Assembly: GCA_048270185.1 (NCBI GenBank)
Contig: JBLWTJ010000001.1
Span: forward strand, 1,280,001 to 1,344,000
Direction of reading: 5' to 3'
DNA length: 64,000 bases
Source of the DNA: Bacteriovoracaceae bacterium
GTDB lineage: Bacteria; Bdellovibrionota; Bacteriovoracia; Bacteriovoracales; Bacteriovoracaceae
Shown piece after piece: positions 11,080 to 25,921 of the stretch (positions are counted from its first letter, which is position 1; every line of letters begins with the position of its first letter). A model generated the notes under the pieces. The model made no database searches, was not told the DNA's origin, and was given only the letters and a program-made list of their open reading frames with translations. The position numbers were made by a program, and so were the translations under genes.

Positions 11080-11912
11080 TTAAAAAAGATATGAAGGTAG
11101 CATTTCAAGGAACAAAGGGTTCTTACTCTGAAGAGGCTCTCTATAAGTATTTCGGAAAAGATGTCGAAGCAGTAGGTATCGCCCTGAGTGAAGATGTGTG
11201 CAGCGCTCTTGAAAATAAAGAAGTCGCTTGTGCTATTCTACCAATCGAAAATAGCATCGTCGGAAACGTCGATATCAATATGGATTTAATTTTTAAACAC
11301 GACTTCTTTGCCATTGGCGAACTCTACTTAGAAATTAATCACTGCCTCATGGCAAATCCGGGTGTGGATATTAAAGATGTAAAAGCTGTTTACTCCCACC
11401 CGATTGCCCTGGCCCAGTGCCATGGCTTCTTTAAAAAGAACGAGTTAAAACCTGTTGCTGAATTTGATACAGCAGGTTCAGCTAAGATCATCTCTGAATC
11501 AAAATCTAATAATGAAGCCTGTGTCGGTTCCAAGCTTTGCGCTGAATACTATGGTCTCAATATCATTCAAGAAAAGATTCAAGATGAAGCCGACAATTAC
11601 ACACGCTTTCTCATCTTTGTTCGTGAAGAAAATATTCCAACAGGAATTGGAAAAGAGAAAACCAGCATCGCCTTTACAACGAAGCACCACCCAGGAGCTT
11701 TACTTGGATGCCTACAAGTCTTTGCCAGTTACGATATCAACTTAACAAAGCTTGAGTCGCGCCCTATTCCACACGAACCATTTAAGTATATCTTCTATGT
11801 TGATTTCATGGGTGCTCTTCACGATCCTAAAGTCCAAAATTGTCTTAAGGAATTAAAGCGTGATGCCAATGGAATTAAGATTCTTGGAAGTTATCCTGCT
11901 GGAAAATTTTAG
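11076..11912 (+). CDS. pheA: Prephenate dehydratase with ACT domain
   Basis: VAFQG..GSYSE, PIENS, SHPIALAQC, NYTRF, NLTKLESRP, LGSYP. Confidence 0.95.
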   Translation: MIKKDMKVAFQGTKGSYSEEALYKYFGKDVEAVGIALSEDVCSALENKEVACAILPIENSIVGNVDINMDLIFKHDFFAIGELYLEINHCLMANPGVDIKDVKAVYSHPIALAQCHGFFKKNELKPVAEFDTAGSAKIISESKSNNEACVGSKLCAEYYGLNIIQEKIQDEADNYTRFLIFVREENIPTGIGKEKTSIAFTTKHHPGALLGCLQVFASYDINLTKLESRPIPHEPFKYIFYVDFMGALHDPKVQNCLKELKRDANGIKILGSYPAGKF

Positions 11913-11913
11913 A

Positions 11914-12687
11914 CTAGGCCTTAATCTTTCTGATTGCGATAAATGAAATATCATCATACTTAAGCCAAGTCTCATCTGTTTGATTTTTACAGAACTCCAC
12001 AAGGTTTTCAAAAGACTTGTCGAAATTCCCCTGGCCAATTAGTTCAGTAAGTGAATCGTGAGGTATATTATCAAAGAGCCCATCACTTCCTATTAAGATA
12101 GTATGTCCTTTTTTGATTGAGGCCCCTGAAGTCGATTCAATTTTAATAACCTCATCACCCATAAGATTATTCACATAATTTCTTTCCGGATGCGATAGTG
12201 ACTCTTCTTGGCCTAAGACACCGGCCTTAACCATATGCCCAACACCAGAGTGCGGAGTGGAAGTATAAACTTCATTTCCATGAGCATTCCAATAGAGTAT
12301 TTCAGAATCACCGACATGGTAGAAGCGAGCGATATCGTCTTTAATATGAGCACAAGCAAGAGTTGATCTTGCACCGGCCTTCAAGGCCGAAACACCTTCA
12401 TTTGCTTTTTCAATGAGATCGATACAATTATCACCGTCTTTATATGCGGCCAAGGCTTCACTAATTGTAACAGAGGCATCTCGACCGCGCGGATGCCCTC
12501 CTGCACCATCGGAGACCCCGAGGACGAAGGACTTTTCATCTCCACTAATGAAGAGTGAGTCTTCATTGAGATCATTTGCTTCTTTTAGTTTATGACGGGC
12601 CAGAAAATAGCCAATACGATAGTCACCGAAGTCAAAGAGTTCATGTTCGCAATCGAGAATGTCGCTAACAATTTTCTTAAATAGCAT
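11914..12687 (-). CDS. PP2C/PPM-family Ser/Thr phosphatase
   Basis: NEDS, SDGAGGH, VGDS, SDGLFD, DDIS metal-binding motifs. Confidence 0.9.
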   Translation of the reverse strand: MLFKKIVSDILDCEHELFDFGDYRIGYFLARHKLKEANDLNEDSLFISGDEKSFVLGVSDGAGGHPRGRDASVTISEALAAYKDGDNCIDLIEKANEGVSALKAGARSTLACAHIKDDIARFYHVGDSEILYWNAHGNEVYTSTPHSGVGHMVKAGVLGQEESLSHPERNYVNNLMGDEVIKIESTSGASIKKGHTILIGSDGLFDNIPHDSLTELIGQGNFDKSFENLVEFCKNQTDETWLKYDDISFIAIRKIKA

Positions 12688-18522: not shown

Positions 18523-19710
18523 TTAGATTTTAACATCCTTAAAGATAACCTTAAGGAAACTGTTAGCTTTATCTAATAATTCAAGATATTCGCTATGCGC
18601 CTCACTGAGTAAAGTGATTCCTCCTCCTGCCCCATATAGAGCTTCCTTAGAAGATTTTGACACACTAAGCGTACGGATATTTATAGACGAGGTCTTCATA
18701 TTTTGAAAATTTAAAACTGTTGAACCAGTGTAAATTCCTCGGGAATTATTCTCAATATTTTTTATAAGTTTTAGTACTCTCTTCTTTGGAGCACCAGTGA
18801 TACTGCCTCCAGGGAAGATGGCCTTGAGAATTTTTGCACTATCGTACTCGTCCATGGCCACACTAATTTGTGAATATTGATGAATCAGGCCCGGTACTCG
18901 AAAGAACTCTCTTTTAGCGTCCACTTGCGAAAAAGAGTCTCCAATTCTTGAAAGATCATTTCTAAGAAGATCGGTAATAATATTTAGCTCACTCTCATTC
19001 TTCTCATCTCCAGTAAAGCTCTCAATACCCTGTTCTTCTCTGACTGTTCCTTTGATAGGTCTTGATATCACACGGCCATTTTTAAAGCAGTACAGACACT
19101 CTGGTGAGTTACTGATAATGAGCTCATCATTTACTTCTAAATTTATGAGATGGGCAAACTCACTGAGGTTTGAAAAAGTCTCTTGGCACAAGAAAGTTTT
19201 CTCAAGTTTATCAAGATCATCGACTTCAAACTTCAAAAGAGAAGTGAGATTTAATTGGTAGCAATTACCATCGAGGAGATTTTCATAAGTCTTTTTAAAT
19301 TTCTCTTCATATTCTTTAAAAGAAATAATACTTAAAGGCTTCGCAGTTGTTTGATCAACATCTTTTAGTGGCTTTATTTCACATGACTCGCTAAAGTCGA
19401 TAAATGTAGCAAGCTCGACTTCCACTTCTTCACTAACTTCTCCCCATTCAAAGAGCATTCCTAATTCATAGTAGAGAACTTGTACTTGCCAGGTATCACT
19501 TAAAATTTCATGAAAGGATTCTTTTGAAAAAGGAAGTGTTATTCCTTTTAGGTAATCATGGATAAATAGATTTGTGACTCGAATATATCGAGAAGGCTTA
19601 CTTAAAGATAAGAAGCCTTCTTCTTTTTTAAAGAAAGCGTATGACTTAATGGCCAGGTCTTGCATCATCTTGTGCATAGGCCACATTTTCAAAGCTTGTG
19701 TGAGCACCAA
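18523..19710 (-). CDS. pabB: Chorismate-binding enzyme, PabB/TrpE-like (start uncertain)
   Basis: GNCYQLNLT, NSPEC, RPIKGT, DLLRNDL, FPGGSITGAPK, GAGGGIT. Confidence 0.8.
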   Translation of the reverse strand: MVLTQALKMWPMHKMMQDLAIKSYAFFKKEEGFLSLSKPSRYIRVTNLFIHDYLKGITLPFSKESFHEILSDTWQVQVLYYELGMLFEWGEVSEEVEVELATFIDFSESCEIKPLKDVDQTTAKPLSIISFKEYEEKFKKTYENLLDGNCYQLNLTSLLKFEVDDLDKLEKTFLCQETFSNLSEFAHLINLEVNDELIISNSPECLYCFKNGRVISRPIKGTVREEQGIESFTGDEKNESELNIITDLLRNDLSRIGDSFSQVDAKREFFRVPGLIHQYSQISVAMDEYDSAKILKAIFPGGSITGAPKKRVLKLIKNIENNSRGIYTGSTVLNFQNMKTSSINIRTLSVSKSSKEALYGAGGGITLLSEAHSEYLELLDKANSFLKVIFKDVKI

Positions 19711-21037
19711 CGAAAGTTAATTTTGCTGTACCAACTTCACCACCACGGTTCTTACCTAGAATGATTTCTGCTAGACCTTGATCTTTAGTATCTGGGTTGT
19801 AGTACTCATCACGATAAACGAACATAATAATATCCGCATCCTGCTCGATCGATCCCGATTCACGAAGATCGGAAATCATTGGTCTCTTATTCGGACGAGA
19901 TTCAACGGAACGGTTAAGCTGTGAAAGTGCAATTACAGGACACTCAAGCTCTTTGGCCATATTCTTTAGACCCCTTGAGATTTCAGAAATCTGCTGTTCA
20001 CGAGAAAGGGTCTTATTGTGTGAACTCATAAGCTGAAGGTAATCGATTACAACTAATCCAAGACCTTCTGAAGCCTTAATCTTACGACAAGCCGATTGAA
20101 TATCAAGTAAGCTTGTTCCTGCATTATCGTTAATATAAATTGGTAGGTCTGCTAATTGCTGGATTCCTTGACCAATCTTTCTTAGATCTGTTTCTAAGAA
20201 CTCTTTTGTTCTAATTCTCTTTGAGTCAATCTTCGCTCTTTGGGTAAGAAGACGCATTGAAAGCTCTTTTGCCATCATCTCCAGAGAGAAGAGAGCAACA
20301 GGCATTTTAGTCATCTCACAAACGTTTTGAGCAAAGTTAAGAGCAAGTGCCGTCTTCCCCATGGCAGGACGAGCAGCAAGAATAATAAGTTGACCTGGTT
20401 GCATTCCAAGAACAAGCTTATCAACGGCGCCATATCCAGTAGGTATACCTTGAACTTGACCGGCCTTACGAGATGTATCTTCGATCTCTTTAATATTTTC
20501 TTTTAGACATTCATTTAGTTTAATCATACTTCCTTGTTTGGCTTCATTTGTAAGCCCAAAGAAAGTTGCTTCTACTTCTTGAATAAAGTCTTGAGCATTT
20601 CCTGAAAAAGTTGCACCTTTATCTGCTACTTTACGAGCTTGGCGAACAAGCTCTCTTAGAGAAGCTTTGTCTTTAACAGTCTTTGCATAATGTCTTAAGT
20701 TGGCACTTGATACTTGGTCTTCCGTAATATCAAGAATGAATGATTGACCACCAATTCCCTCAAGTCTATTGTGATCTTGGAGGTGGGAACAAATTGTTAC
20801 GTAGTCGACTGGATTATTAGAATAAACCATGTCTTTAATAGCATCATAAACAATCCCATATTTAGGATCGTAAAAGTCTTTTCCTTCTAACTTTAAGTCA
20901 GAGATTTCATCAAAAGATAAACTATCTAGTAATAGACATGACAGAAGTGATTTTTCTGAAAGAGTATCATTTGGAAGTGCTCGCGCACCTGGATTCATAC
21001 TTTGTTGTTGCTGTTGTTCCATCATATTCGGCCCCAT
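19646..21037 (-). CDS. dnaB: Replicative DNA helicase
   Basis: AARPAMGKT, FSLEM, IDYLQL, LSQLNR, DLRESGSIEQDAD. Confidence 0.98.
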   Translation of the reverse strand: MGPNMMEQQQQQSMNPGARALPNDTLSEKSLLSCLLLDSLSFDEISDLKLEGKDFYDPKYGIVYDAIKDMVYSNNPVDYVTICSHLQDHNRLEGIGGQSFILDITEDQVSSANLRHYAKTVKDKASLRELVRQARKVADKGATFSGNAQDFIQEVEATFFGLTNEAKQGSMIKLNECLKENIKEIEDTSRKAGQVQGIPTGYGAVDKLVLGMQPGQLIILAARPAMGKTALALNFAQNVCEMTKMPVALFSLEMMAKELSMRLLTQRAKIDSKRIRTKEFLETDLRKIGQGIQQLADLPIYINDNAGTSLLDIQSACRKIKASEGLGLVVIDYLQLMSSHNKTLSREQQISEISRGLKNMAKELECPVIALSQLNRSVESRPNKRPMISDLRESGSIEQDADIIMFVYRDEYYNPDTKDQGLAEIILGKNRGGEVGTAKLTFVGAHTSFENVAYAQDDARPGH

Positions 21038-21103: not shown

Positions 21104-21715
21104 TTAGCTTCTTAGAATTCTATTGGCTTCCATCTTAAGCTTTTCTTCTTCAGAAAGCTCAGTGTTTTCACCATTTGCAGCAGCTTCTTCTTGTTCTTTT
21201 GCAAGAGCTTCTTTAGCAGCTTTTGCAGCAGCAAGTTCTTCTGCTTTTTTCTTGTTTTCTTCTTCTTGAGCTGGATCCATTTTTACAGATACAGTAAAAG
21301 CAGCTTCAATTCCTGCGAAGATTTTAGCTTTAACAGTGTAGCTACCAACTGAACGAATTGGATCTTCTAGAAGAAGGTGTCTTCTTTCTACATCGTGACC
21401 TAGCTTAGCTAGTTCTTGAGAAAGTTCGTGAGTTGTAACAGAACCAAAAAGTTTACCGTTAGTACCAACTCTTTTGATTAGTTCAAGGTTAACACCATTG
21501 ATTGCTTTAGCAACAGTTTCAGCATCAGCTTTATCACCAGCTACTTTCTTAGCAAGTAGTTTTTCGTAGTGCTTAACTTGAGCTGTATTAGACTCATCTG
21601 CAAGAACAGCTGAACCATTTGGGATTAGGAAGTTTCTTGCATAACCAGCAGAAACATTAACAATTTCCCCTACGTTTCCAAGAGACTTTACAGTTTCTTT
21701 AAGAATAACTTTCAT
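21104..21715 (-). CDS. rplI: 50S ribosomal protein L9 with acidic C-terminal extension
   Basis: MKVIL...GYARNFLIP, GKLFGSVT. Confidence 0.97.
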   Translation of the reverse strand: MKVILKETVKSLGNVGEIVNVSAGYARNFLIPNGSAVLADESNTAQVKHYEKLLAKKVAGDKADAETVAKAINGVNLELIKRVGTNGKLFGSVTTHELSQELAKLGHDVERRHLLLEDPIRSVGSYTVKAKIFAGIEAAFTVSVKMDPAQEEENKKKAEELAAAKAAKEALAKEQEEAAANGENTELSEEEKLKMEANRILRS

Positions 21716-21716
21716 T

Positions 21717-22727
21717 TTATATCTCCTTATTATTTTTAAAAAATCTTCTAAAGTTGACCCAATAATCTAGAAGGCCAACAATCGCAATAAAGCGATGAGC
21801 AAAGAAAATAGTCATAATTGCAAGAATTGAGCGGATAAATCCTGTTACCTTGATGTACTTTAAAAAGTCCAGGTAAACACCCATTCCTTGAAAGAAGTAA
21901 AAAACACCTAAGCAAAGTAGAATATTAAGACCAATGATTTCATAAGTCTCACCACCGATATACTCTCCTCCTAAGAAGAGACCAAGACCGACGATAACAA
22001 TAAATGCAAAGTACTCTGGCACTTGAAAGCGAACAAAGTTCTTTAGTCCATACTTGTAACCGTGGAGCATTTTCCACATTGTTGCATTTCTAAGAAGCAT
22101 AAAAACCGTAAGCCAAAGAATGAAGAATGTTCCAACGAAAATTACAGAGAATCCCCATTGATAAACTTTCGTAATAACCTCTTCTGGTTTATCAAAAATT
22201 TGTTGATAAAGGGCGGCCATTTCACCACCACGAGAGATTAATTCTTTGTACTCAGGTGTACTTTTAAGTTGCGTAAAAGATGATGTTACTAGTTCCGTAA
22301 TCGAGTTTGAGATCGCTGAAGGGAAAATCACTTCAATCGTTCCCATGATTCCGAAAATAACTACGAGTAAATAGAAACCTCTTTTTAGAAGTCCTTTAAC
22401 CGGATCTTCATTCTTCAAAATAGTTGAAGCACTTAAGAATCCAATAATCACGGCATAGAATAAGAATGCCGCAGAATTACCAAGGATTAAGAAAGCTTCA
22501 CCGTACTGAGAACCTAAAAAGGCCAATATAATAATCGTTCCAAAGGCAACAAAAGTTTTTAAGTTTCCGTAAAGCAAGAATGCGAAAGCAGCCGGTAGTG
22601 GTGAAAAAACACCAAGTGGATATGCTACGCTTAGAACCAAACAAATTACACACAGAAAGATTAGCTTCCCAATAGTGAAGTTATCTTTCGAAATTGGTGA
22701 AAATGTATTTGGCTTTTTTTCGTTCAT
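21717..22727 (-). CDS. DUF2232 (YybS-like) membrane protein
   Basis: Multi-TM; YFFQG and GLLDYWVNFRR motifs; usual position between rpsR and rplI. Confidence 0.8.
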   Translation of the reverse strand: MNEKKPNTFSPISKDNFTIGKLIFLCVICLVLSVAYPLGVFSPLPAAFAFLLYGNLKTFVAFGTIIILAFLGSQYGEAFLILGNSAAFLFYAVIIGFLSASTILKNEDPVKGLLKRGFYLLVVIFGIMGTIEVIFPSAISNSITELVTSSFTQLKSTPEYKELISRGGEMAALYQQIFDKPEEVITKVYQWGFSVIFVGTFFILWLTVFMLLRNATMWKMLHGYKYGLKNFVRFQVPEYFAFIVIVGLGLFLGGEYIGGETYEIIGLNILLCLGVFYFFQGMGVYLDFLKYIKVTGFIRSILAIMTIFFAHRFIAIVGLLDYWVNFRRFFKNNKEI

Positions 22728-22761
22728 TACTTTTACTATTTCCTAAAATTTCATTCACTTC

Positions 22762-23370
22762 TTAGTGAGCGAAATCACCTCTAACATGAGAAACTAGACC
22801 AATATTTCTTGCTCTCTTGATAGCTGTTTGTGCCCATCTGTGGTGCTTAGTCGATACACCAGTTACTCTTGATGGTTGAATCTTACCAAATTCGTTGATT
22901 AGCCAGTTGTAAGTCTTTGGATCTTTCCAATCAGCAGTGATGCTGTTTGCTTTAAACCAACAGTTCTTTCTCTTAGCGAATCTTCTCTTGTCTTTTTCAG
23001 CACCTTTTTCAAGTTCATCAGTTTGTGAACCAGCGTGAGCTTTAGAGAATGGAGTCTTGTAGTTTTTAACAGCAGTTTCAGCGTCAGTATCAAGTTTAAC
23101 GATTAGGTACTTGTGTACGTTTTCGTTAATTTTGAAACGTCTTTGAAGTTCTGTGTTTAGGTCTTTGTTTCCTGAAACGATGAAATAGATGTAGTTACCT
23201 GTTCTAGAACCGTTCTTGGCAGTTTGAGCAAATGTTCTCATTCCCCAATCATCAGTTAGGTGAACTTCACCTTCGTAATTTTTTGCAACTTCAGCTACTA
23301 GGTTTTTAAGGCTAGTTTGTTGCTCTTCAGTTGCGCCCGCGTGAGCTACTAATGCTAACTCATAAATCAT
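22762..23370 (-). CDS. rpsF-rpsR: Fused 30S ribosomal proteins S6-S18
   Basis: N-terminal S6 (YEL...DWGMR...INENVHKYLIVK); C-terminal S18 (DWKD...GKIQPSRVTG...AIKRARNIGL); one continuous frame. Confidence 0.93.
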   Translation of the reverse strand: MIYELALVAHAGATEEQQTSLKNLVAEVAKNYEGEVHLTDDWGMRTFAQTAKNGSRTGNYIYFIVSGNKDLNTELQRRFKINENVHKYLIVKLDTDAETAVKNYKTPFSKAHAGSQTDELEKGAEKDKRRFAKRKNCWFKANSITADWKDPKTYNWLINEFGKIQPSRVTGVSTKHHRWAQTAIKRARNIGLVSHVRGDFAH

Positions 23371-23372
23371 AC

Positions 23373-23428
23373 TTTATCTCCTGGACAATAGTTATTATTG
23401 GCTTCCCCACCATAGGGAAGCGAGTAAA
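23373..23428 (-). promoter_or_regulatory. S6:S18-type ribosomal leader RNA
   Basis: UUUACUC can pair with GAG(A)UAAA over the SD; GCUUCCC/GGGAAGC hairpin; CCA just before GGAG. Confidence 0.6.
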
Positions 23429-23484
23429 TTAACGGTCAATGTGCGCCTAATCTACCAGTCTTGTGGCTTTGTGTAAAGCCATGG

Positions 23485-23690
23485 AAGGTGCACGCAACTT
23501 TTTCGTGAAATCAATAACTTAAAATGAAACAGGTAAAGAGATATACGTCTTTTCAATAAGTTAAAAAATACTCACGAAGTCTTTGCTCACCCGAAGGACC
23601 AAAATAAGCATAAATAGTGGTAAATATTTACAAATACGCACTCAAGGTCAAGATAAACACCTGAAATCTTGAAAAGGTTGCGTGCACCTT
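23485..23690. mobile_element. 206-bp non-coding element with 20-bp terminal inverted repeats (MITE/REPIN-like)
   Basis: AAGGTGCACGCAACTTTTTC (23485-23504) and GAAAAGGTTGCGTGCACCTT (23671-23690) are 19/20 complementary. Confidence 0.55.
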
Positions 23691-24291
23691 AGTCGAGCCA
23701 TTCCAGAAGAATATCGATCTTCATATTGATATCGTCGATTTCAAGGATGCCCTGCTTTAAATCAGGAGAAGTTACGACAAATTCAGTGATGGCCCCAATG
23801 AGAACTATGGGATCAGTAGTGGCCTCTATCAGAGCATCATACTCGGCCGGGTTTTTAAAGAATGACTTGGCCCAATGACGAAATACTAATGAAAGTTTTT
23901 GCAGAGAAATCATATGCTCTGGCATAACACTTAAGAATTCAGGAATAGTTTCAATCTCCACCGTATTAAAAGGGCCACCTTCGTTGTAGACACTAACGAT
24001 CTCCCCTTTAGCGATTGGCTCAAGAACAACGAGCATGGTTCCATCTTTTGATTTTTGAAGAATCTCAACTCGACCGAACCCTGTGATACGGCGAACACTC
24101 TTATACTTGTCGTGTTCAATGGCTATCGACTCTTCATTCTCATCAAGATTTGCGTAGGAAAGCGCGACAGGTACGCCAAGCTTTTCTGCTTCATGAATCA
24201 TTTGAATATAGCGTGGCTCGAAAATATTGAGAGGTTTCTTAAGGATTGCTTGGTAGGAAACTTTATGTAATGGAAATAAGAATGCTCTCAT
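23689..24291 (-). CDS. Stand-alone Lon protease substrate-binding domain protein
   Basis: LFPL...PLNIFEPRYIQMI, DGTMLV, KQGILE. Confidence 0.85.
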   Translation of the reverse strand: MRAFLFPLHKVSYQAILKKPLNIFEPRYIQMIHEAEKLGVPVALSYANLDENEESIAIEHDKYKSVRRITGFGRVEILQKSKDGTMLVVLEPIAKGEIVSVYNEGGPFNTVEIETIPEFLSVMPEHMISLQKLSLVFRHWAKSFFKNPAEYDALIEATTDPIVLIGAITEFVVTSPDLKQGILEIDDINMKIDILLEWLD

Positions 24292-24304
24292 AAGTTTTCC
24301 TCAT

Positions 24305-24324
24305 AAAGGTTCCTGGAACCTTTT
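24305..24324. repeat. REP-like palindrome
   Basis: AAAGGTTCC-T-GGAACCTTT, related to the RAYT-flanking repeats; abuts a second hairpin at 24323-24345. Confidence 0.6.
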
Positions 24325-24349
24325 CGGGATGCATTGCACCCCGAATGGG

Positions 24350-25921
24350 CTAGAATATTTCGTATTGTTCAACGTGGTAAGAGTTCTCTGAACGAATCTG
24401 AAGATTCACACCAAAGACTTCTTCCATCGTTTCGATAATATCAATCTCTTCACTACACAGAGATGCTGTCACCTCAGGGTGAGCGTAAATTGATACTTTC
24501 TTTGACTTTGGATTATTGCGAATTTTTTTTCCAAGTTCGCGTACAATTTCAAAACAAACAGTGCTTACCGTCTTAACAATGCCATTTCCATCACAGTACT
24601 GGCATGGCTCACACATAATTCGTGTAAGAGTGTCACGAGTTCTCTTACGAGTCATCTCAACTAAACCTAGCTCTGAAATCGGTAGGACTTTAGTTTTTGA
24701 GCGATCTTTCTTAAGCGCTTCTACTAAAGTGTTATAAACAGCTTCACGGTTTTCTTCTTTTTCCATATCGATAAAATCGATAATAATAATCCCACCGCAA
24801 TTTCTAAGTCTTAGCTGATATGCTATCTCTTTTACTGCTTCTAAATTTGTTCTAAGAATTGTTTCTTCGAGAGTCTTTCGCCCGACAAATTTTCCCGTGT
24901 TAACATCAATTGAAACAAGGGCCTCTGTTTGGTCAATATTTAATGATCCACCAGAGCGCAGGTAAACCTTATTACTAAGTCCTCTTTCGATTTCAATATC
25001 AACACCGTATTTTTCAAAAATAGGATTCGTTTCATCAAAGTATTTCGCCTTGCCTTTAATTTGTGGAAGGTACTTTGCTGCGAATTTCTCAACTTCTTTC
25101 ACACCATCTTTATCATCGATAATAATATTTTCCACATCTTCATCAGTGATGTCGCGAAGAACTCGTTGAATGAAAGTTAGGTCTTCATAGCAAAGGGCCG
25201 GAGCCTTTTCCTTTTCAGACTTCTTTTGAACTTCCTTCCAGATTTTAGTCAGCATATCGTAGTCAGTTTTAAGAGTCTTGTATGAACTCCCCTCTGCTAC
25301 AGTTCTGGCAATTACACCCTTACCTTCTGGGCGAATTGTTTCAAGCATTTCTTTTAAACGATCGCGTTCATCATCATTTTCAATACGGCGAGAAACACCA
25401 GTGTGTTCGATGAATGGCATATAGACAACGTAGCGGCCAGGAATCGTCACGTGACGTGTTACTCTTGGGCCCTTTGTTGAGATAGGCTCTTTTGCAACCT
25501 GAACAATAATCTCATCCCCTTCTTTAAGGAACGATTCAATAGTGGCAGAAGCTGGTCGCATTTTCATATCAACCGCTTCAGATAGAGTTGCCAACTCATC
25601 AGGAATCACAAGCCCTGAGTCTTGCTTTTCTTTTCTAATTTCTTCGGCCTTCTTTGCCATTTCTCTTTGTTCATCAATTGTTGGAAGATAGGCATCATCA
25701 ACATATAAGAAAGCAGCCTTCTCGTACCCAATATCAACAAAAGCTGATTGCATACCAGGCAGTACTCTTAATACTTTTCCGCGATAAATATTTCCAAGTC
25801 TTGGGTGTGGTGACGTTGTTGGTTTCGTTCTCTCCATAAGGAAGTCGAGAATTTCACCGTTCTCCATCAAAACAGCACGCCACTCGTTAACTGTTTTGTT
25901 AATAATCAAATCTTTAGACAT
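24350..25921 (-). CDS. rng: Ribonuclease G (Rne/Rng family)
   Basis: GNIYRGKV..VLPGMQSAFVDIG, KEPISTKGPR, IDVNTG, IDFIDM, GLVEMTRKR, CQYC. Confidence 0.95.
   Translation of the reverse strand: MSKDLIINKTVNEWRAVLMENGEILDFLMERTKPTTSPHPRLGNIYRGKVLRVLPGMQSAFVDIGYEKAAFLYVDDAYLPTIDEQREMAKKAEEIRKEKQDSGLVIPDELATLSEAVDMKMRPASATIESFLKEGDEIIVQVAKEPISTKGPRVTRHVTIPGRYVVYMPFIEHTGVSRRIENDDERDRLKEMLETIRPEGKGVIARTVAEGSSYKTLKTDYDMLTKIWKEVQKKSEKEKAPALCYEDLTFIQRVLRDITDEDVENIIIDDKDGVKEVEKFAAKYLPQIKGKAKYFDETNPIFEKYGVDIEIERGLSNKVYLRSGGSLNIDQTEALVSIDVNTGKFVGRKTLEETILRTNLEAVKEIAYQLRLRNCGGIIIIDFIDMEKEENREAVYNTLVEALKKDRSKTKVLPISELGLVEMTRKRTRDTLTRIMCEPCQYCDGNGIVKTVSTVCFEIVRELGKKIRNNPKSKKVSIYAHPEVTASLCSEEIDIIETMEEVFGVNLQIRSENSYHVEQYEIF

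Follow-up and report, generated by a model that had tools for sequence, protein, structure and literature searches.

A fused rpsF-rpsR gene encoding a putative single-chain S6-S18 ribosomal protein in the order Bacteriovoracales

In ordinary bacteria, the ribosomal proteins S6 and S18 are separate products that must pair into a heterodimer before they can bind the central domain of the 16S rRNA, once this has been primed by S15. Small ribosomal proteins, S18 included, reportedly exist in zinc-binding (C+) and zinc-free (C-) forms, a distinction that is said to have been drawn by Makarova et al. in 2001. The C+ and C- forms are also dealt with in PMC6094098, and PMC4647458 describes K60 and R63 of S18 as conserved basic residues which contact the 16S rRNA, together with the RpsF_leader (Rfam RF02893), the motif bound by the S6:S18 complex. 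No published description of an S6-S18 fusion was found in full-text searches of the openly available literature, and no mention of such a fusion was found in the main texts of PMC3353972, PMC11656739 and PMC12724312.

The fused gene, its modules and its neighborhood

The window, i.e., the whole stretch of 64,000 nucleotides that was analyzed, belongs to an assembly of 3.35 Mb (95.9% complete) of Halobacteriovorax, a marine predatory bacterium. The fused rpsF-rpsR gene lies on the minus strand at 22762..23370, including the stop codon, as one ATG-started open reading frame (ORF) of 202 aa, which has no internal stop in the ORF list and whose product has a mass of 23.1 kDa and a pI of 9.6, both computed from the sequence. 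The original prediction, which read this ORF as a complete S6 and a complete S18 with neither a stop nor an intervening ssb or priB between them, was borne out by profile searches, in which both the Pfam and the NCBIfam families exceeded their cut-offs. For S6, these were Ribosomal_S6 (PF01250; residues 3-92, 60.7 bits against a cut-off of 27, aligned over 2-90 of the 90 profile positions) and the equivalog TIGR00166 (residues 1-94, 43.8 bits against 42.9), and for S18, on the same ORF, Ribosomal_S18 (PF01084; residues 144-192, 58.9 bits against 21) and the equivalog TIGR00165 (residues 131-196, 54.1 bits against 38.75). Given that both halves exceed curated cut-offs, and that 144 of the 151 genomes sampled from the order have the same undivided ORF, chance is excluded as an explanation of the fused ORF.

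The limits of the two modules were set by these profiles and by alignment with solved chains, in which residues 3-99 of the fused protein match residues 4-101 of a 135-aa S6 chain, and residues 129-195 match residues 3-70 of a 75-aa S18 chain, so that the segment outside both cores comprises approximately residues 100-126/128. The S6 module (residues 1-99; 23074..23370, minus strand) is thus followed by a linker of approximately 27 residues (residues 100-126; 22993..23073, minus strand), placed between the cores with the aid of conservation and the predicted structure, and by the S18 module (residues 127-202 and the stop codon; 22762..22992, minus strand), for which column conservation was also used. 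The linker string that had been quoted beforehand is found as residues 94-125 of the ORF, and the gap between the cores, from residue 99 to residue 129, is comparable to the 34-residue C-terminal tail that the 135-aa solved S6 carries beyond its residue 101. K60 and R63 (E. coli numbering) of the 75-aa solved chain have their counterparts in K185 and R188 of the S18 module, and among 64 fused homologues K185 is conserved in at least 90% and R188 is invariant.

The AlphaFold2 (AF2) model of the whole chain has a mean pLDDT of 75.1 and a pTM of 0.51. Its S6 module, modeled with a pLDDT of 81-90 over residues 1-100, shows the order strand-helix-strand-strand-helix-strand and was matched by Foldseek to S6 chains with a target-normalized TM of 0.84-0.92, an rmsd of 1.3-1.6 and E values of approximately 4e-8; this search was also used in delimiting the module. 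The S18 module reaches a pLDDT of just 60-82, residues 115-134, which include part of the linker, stay below 50, and the model gives no confident relative placement of the two modules, so it cannot show that the halves are packed like those of the heterodimer. Among the matches that Foldseek listed, all 50 are S6 chains or engineered S6 variants; no fused chain is among them, nor among the solved chains listed in the sequence comparison.

Pfam profile searches of the assembly returned this ORF as the sole S6 match and, likewise, as the sole S18 match, which means that it must supply both of these essential proteins. Neither ssb nor priB separates the halves, and the two SSB matches of the genome sit on other contigs. 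The ORFs that follow on the minus strand, all of them recognized through Pfam, encode a DUF2232 membrane protein (21717-22727), L9 (rplI; 21104-21715) and DnaB (19646-21037), and the arrangement rpsF(R)-DUF2232-rplI-dnaB persists throughout the order: of its 33 loci, all have L9 and DnaB ORFs downstream, and 31 have DUF2232 there. The DUF2232 gene between the fused gene and rplI is an odd yet stable member of this ribosomal-protein and dnaB cluster, and it is apparently at the same place in one outgroup locus (G030, L015). Upstream of the fused gene, at 23689-24291 on the minus strand, lies a stand-alone protein of 200 aa that has only a Lon substrate-binding (N-terminal) domain and that was detected with the window query in just three of 43 fetched loci (L003, L010, L026).

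Distribution, split relatives and the zinc motif of S18

In an even sample of the order, a full-length, stop-free match to the fused protein was found in 144 of the 151 species genomes, at 39-93% identity. Such a match was also found in 12 of 13 genomes of the genus, G000 counted (the miss, G012, is 73% complete), in 11 of the 12 other genera of the family, and in the sole genome of a second family of the order (G025, 0.9 Mb). The seven exceptions in the even sample are G064, which has an in-frame TAA, three genomes with two separate matches each (G071, G124 and G170), one with a weak partial match only (G147), and two without any match (G159 and G168, 89% and 86% complete). In a sample of 161 genomes of the phylum, full-length matches were confined to this family (29 stop-free, plus G064), and there were none in the 131 genomes of 24 other families, where S6 and S18 gave separate matches. 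The suggestion that the fusion is a trait of the whole clade thus holds for almost all of the order, but the trait is neither strictly universal within it nor unique to it.

The genome of the second family is 96% complete and has a very long branch, and its fused gene (L023/L051, G025:C2:49624-50184) has rplI directly downstream, with no DUF2232 gene; the organism appears to be a relative of the predators that has undergone strong reduction. As for the databases, the best 120 of 244 homologues all contain both Pfam domains, in proteins of 203-238 aa, and those closest to the window protein, from Halobacteriovorax, are called "30S ribosomal protein S18" at NCBI and "ribosomal protein S18/ribosomal protein S6" or "S6" at JGI. 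The fused protein is therefore already present in the databases under wrong names, and annotators should be aware that names referring to S18 only, or to S6 only, can make a genome seem to lack the other protein.

Stop-to-stop ORFs in the fetched loci revealed four genera of the family in which rpsF and rpsR are separate and adjacent (G014, G071, G124 and G170, at loci L020, L018, L021 and L017, respectively), and the fusion is thus not required by this type of ribosome. In these genera, S6 ends approximately 12-21 residues past its core in a tail of the form V-K-x-Y-K/R-x-P, which equals the start of the fused linker, and S18 begins with an acidic, low-complexity N-terminal extension of 50-65 residues. 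The genes are also adjacent in the outgroups, three of which (G172, G232 and G281) have long S6 tails and S18 extensions, as in the split genera, while three more (G030, G038 and G039) have short ones; in G030 and G039, rpsF and rpsR are parted by a single in-frame stop. The distance from the S6 core to the first cysteine is 26-45 residues in the fused proteins versus 71-78 in the split forms, and the simplest event, as far as can be read from these sequences, would be that rpsF lost its stop and S18 the greater part of its extension.

The fused proteins come in two types. Type A, to which the window gene belongs, has a linker of the form Y-K-T-P-F-S-K-x-Y-x-G-S-V-T-D...E-K-D-R-K-R-F and the S18 motif I-K-A-D-W-K-D-P, and forms a clade of 16 rows that the S6+S18 gene tree and the four-gene tree each support with an SH-aLRT of 99%, while type B has a shorter linker (Y-K-N-P-N-H) and an S18 that resembles that of the split forms. 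Trees of linked genes were built from DnaB and L9 (649 columns) and from four genes, with DUF2232 and RNase G added (1520 columns). In these trees, the split genera are scattered among the fused lineages: G170 and G014 are paired (96%), G071 and G124 are grouped with the fused G076 and G060 (95%), and G064 is the sister of the normally fused G016 (100%). The well-supported branches of the four-gene tree demand at least three changes of the fused or split state. Constraining all of the fused rows and G064 together made the log-likelihood worse by 32.9 units with two genes (p-AU 0.047) and by 47.0 with four genes (p-AU 0.020), in tests where the group was chosen after the tree had been viewed, the searches were of the "quick" type and all four genes adjoin the locus. 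Given the scatter of the split genera among the fused lineages, we conclude that the state changed more than once, either through repeated fusion or through secondary fission.

The zinc motif of S18 varies along with this state. In the window protein, the four zinc-ligand columns read C/K/S/H, so that the CxxC...CxxH motif of the C+ subclass is absent and a single cysteine, Cys137, is found in the S18 part. Cys137 is kept in all 121 sequences formed by the window protein and its best 120 homologues, in none of which the other two cysteine columns contain cysteine. The ligand columns read C-C-C-H in six of six outgroups and in the split G014, G124 and G170, the split G071 has none of the four ligands, and the full motif occurs in none of 29 fused loci, which, like G064, keep the first cysteine at most. 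The original prediction was right that only one cysteine is present, but this is not in itself a damaged motif, given that solved S18 chains from several bacteria also show one cysteine in the Cys137 column. The alignments thus identify the window S18 with the ordinary zinc-free form, and a comparison with the outgroups and split relatives, which have CxxC...CxxH, marks its one-cysteine state as a derived loss. Within this one order, the fused state is associated with the loss of the zinc motif, and a causal link between the two may be proposed.

Similar fusions also occur far from this order. In the ESM Atlas, 10 of the 30 nearest clusters contain both Pfam families, including clusters whose label gives Candidatus Absconditibacteriota (55 members) or Pseudomonadota (61 members) as the most frequent source. 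Among 25 distant representatives, picked from 150 listed for having a match over both halves or in two stretches, 24 have both domains, always S6 and then S18, at 20-38% identity and with lengths of 168-266 aa; a further listed representative (P0136, 924 aa, 14 matched stretches) was rejected as spurious, being a repetitive translation without any Pfam family. Given that the linkers of the distant fusions are unrelated and that their flanking sequences are typical of diverse lineages, they look like independent events, and the sequences indicate that S6-S18 fusion is not unique to this clade. One of the distant representatives is 98% identical to a 190-aa ORF of a Legionellaceae MAG (PANR01000023.1, L066:2998-3570), which is an S6-S18 fusion of gammaproteobacterial type without cysteine in its S18 part. 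A genome scan with P0160, a fused protein of gammaproteobacterial appearance, returned 80 loci of gamma- and betaproteobacteria, only one of which, that of the Legionellaceae MAG, is a single ORF; the full coverage of the query at many of these loci was rejected as a sign of fusion, as the other 79 are merely adjacent genes, many of them without priB in between.

The linker, the leader and the rival explanations

The linker is 26-38 residues long, with a mode of 27, in the window protein and its best 120 homologues. Among 64 fused homologues, mostly of type A, there is no variation at residues K102, P107, S109 and G114, while K105, K110 and S115 are found in at least 90%. It is the first half of the linker that is conserved, and it probably makes contacts on the 30S platform, whereas the second half varies, is acidic and is proposed to be a spacer. 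In Flavobacterium johnsoniae, according to PMC7797042, the 3' tail of the 16S rRNA lies in the groove between bS6 and bS18, where it is touched by a helix of the C-terminal extension of bS6. The conserved segment of the linker starts where this extension would, an analogy that may serve as a lead rather than as a result.

Upstream of the fused gene, on the same strand, there are signals for its expression. The Shine-Dalgarno (SD) sequence AGGAGA (23377..23382, minus strand) lies 6 nt 5' of the ATG and overlaps with a CAGGAG block that is kept in 13 of 14 aligned leaders, the remaining one having CGGGAG. A consensus scan found a promoter-like site at 23449..23477 (minus strand), consisting of TTTACA, a spacer of 17 nt and TAGATT, with a TG before the -10 hexamer, which coincides with a TTTAC block that shows no variation among the 14 upstream regions aligned. 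The leader in between is predicted to fold into a hairpin at 23401..23421 (minus strand), with a 9-bp stem, a 3-nt loop and conserved flanks, with CUC preceding the stem and CAA following it, and in all 14 leaders, each folded separately, a hairpin follows directly after the conserved CUC.

In 16 distinct sequences from 16 type-A species, the outer six pairs of the hairpin are standard in all 16, and pairs 3-6 are formed by three to five pair types each, while a control with the partner slid by one position gave pairing in 8-9 of 16 at positions 4-6; these counts come from the predicted fold of each sequence, which leans towards pairing, and were made in this way because MAFFT had set gaps in the 3' arm. 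RNAalifold, applied to a MAFFT alignment of 12 leaders, returned only five pairs and -0.46 kcal/mol. The energy of the window hairpin is ordinary (z = -1.06), with 32 of 200 shuffles folding at least as well, and the anchor motif is missing in three of 23 type-A leaders, in which hairpins are still visible by eye. At E<=1, Rfam gave no match in the region 22000-24500 of the window, and the RpsF_leader model (RF02893) gave none in the whole genome, while its control found E. coli and Caulobacter. The hairpin is a candidate feedback element with a shape other than that of the RpsF_leader.

Three other explanations of the fused ORF can be weighed against a single working chain. Two genes might have been joined by a mistake in assembly or sequencing, or by a mutation that arose recently, giving an artefact or a decaying gene, and the window does stem from an assembly of metagenome type, while the relative G064 carries a stop in its linker. 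This fused-type gene (L019/L050, G064:C61, match 11564-12163) has one in-frame TAA and no ATG afterwards in its S18 part, and the TAA may reflect an error in sequencing or a nonsense mutation that arose recently, or it may be a site of read-through or re-initiation. Against an artefact stand the recurrence of the same ORF in the 144 genomes, complete single-contig ones among them, its position as the sole copy of two essential genes, and the outcome of a check against independent runs, in which Logan contigs, rather than reads, were aligned to positions 22500-23700 of the window. There were no differences from the probable source run (X1) over 22895-23700, from an independent run of seawater DNA (X3) over 22910-23312, or from an RNA-library run (X4) over 22500-23154, a contig that leaves 23155-23370 uncovered and is no proof of transcription or of a single transcript. 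A related strain (X5) differed by 16 substitutions over 22859-23489, with no gaps. No insertions or deletions were reported in the four runs, so that the reading as an artefact, which has practically no chance of being right, is refuted for practical purposes.

The other two explanations accept the gene and concern its product. S18 could also, or mainly, be made from a start inside the fused ORF, with the full-length product a minor one, and type B and the split forms do have a methionine just before the S18 core (K-M-F-S-K-R-K-S-C-W-F), where a start is possible. In the window gene, however, the equivalent position reads R-R-F, the only in-frame ATG, GTG or TTG codons are codons 1 and 44, with none in the linker, and an SD-like GGAG, GAGG or AGGA is absent from nt 198 to nt 590, a stretch that includes the linker; as there is neither a start after codon 44 nor an SD-like motif, a separately initiated S18 is unlikely here, and internal initiation as a whole is very improbable. 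The main rival is the cleavage of the linker after translation or assembly, in which case mature ribosomes would carry a separate S6 and S18, and the fusion would serve only to co-express and pre-pair them. The conserved K102-x-Y-K-x-P107-x-S109-K110 and G114 could in principle form a processing site, and a disordered, exposed state is predicted for the second half of the linker. In the split relatives, however, S6 also ends in the YK-x-P segment, which must therefore be older than the fusion and more probably belongs to the structure of S6 itself, and no protease gene or precedent for such a cleavage was found; we regard both the cleavage and the purely co-expressing role that it would leave to the fusion as improbable. 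The preferred reading, which we hold to be likely, is that of a single-chain bS6-bS18, in which one polypeptide, intact and functional, would serve both roles in the 30S platform. This agrees with the natural covalent heterodimer that had been predicted, which is supported at the DNA level by a sole, conserved copy on one ORF.

The single chain compared with known systems

The origin of this single chain may be pictured as follows: the rpsF stop disappeared, as did the greater part of the long, acidic extension at the N-terminus of S18, so that the C-terminal tail of S6 would continue directly into S18. Translation would then fix the stoichiometry of S6 and S18 at 1:1, the formation of the dimer would become intramolecular, and the C-terminus of S6 and the N-terminus of S18 would no longer be free. 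A sigma-70-like promoter would transcribe the gene through the structured leader, which may provide feedback control by the fused product. A bolder proposal, which we consider doubtful, is that tethering to S6 replaces the stabilizing role of the zinc knuckle, or makes the knuckle dispensable, and that the conserved half of the linker is a new functional element of the platform, read out through an S6-S18 leader hairpin of a new type.

What is added here to the fusion itself are the living split intermediates, the repeated change of state, the association with zinc loss, the conserved half of the linker and the candidate leader hairpin. S6 and S18 are textbook ribosomal proteins that need to pair before they bind rRNA, and a natural single chain found across an order would offer a ready system for testing co-folding and stoichiometry in the assembly of the 30S platform. 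The route of the fusion, which would start from rpsF-ssb-rpsR, pass through a stage of adjacent genes and end in a fused gene, appears to have living intermediates, and the data suggest a link between tethering and the loss of the zinc site. The same architecture seems to have arisen elsewhere, which would make it a recurrent natural variant of the bacterial ribosome.

Compared with the canonical bS6:bS18 pair of the E. coli, B. subtilis and S. aureus ribosomes, the fused protein has the same families and cores, the S6 fold and the equivalents of K60 and R63, and its gene shares the rplI neighborhood. Unlike this pair, it is encoded as one chain, with no ssb or priB between its halves and with a joining segment that is partly conserved, and the C-terminus of S6 and the N-terminus of S18 would not be free. 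With regard to the RpsF_leader (RF02893), the likeness lies in a structured 5' leader that is directly upstream of rpsF, near the SD sequence, with compensatory changes across species, whereas the difference is that the RF02893 covariance model gives no match at E<=1 and that the shape is that of a simple hairpin.

The fused forms keep only the first cysteine, as does the C- S18 of solved ribosomes, but here the C- state follows the fused state rather than a second paralogue, given that the genome has a single S18. Finally, in the gamma- and betaproteobacteria the fusion is sporadic (one of 80 loci), whereas in the present clade it is nearly order-wide.
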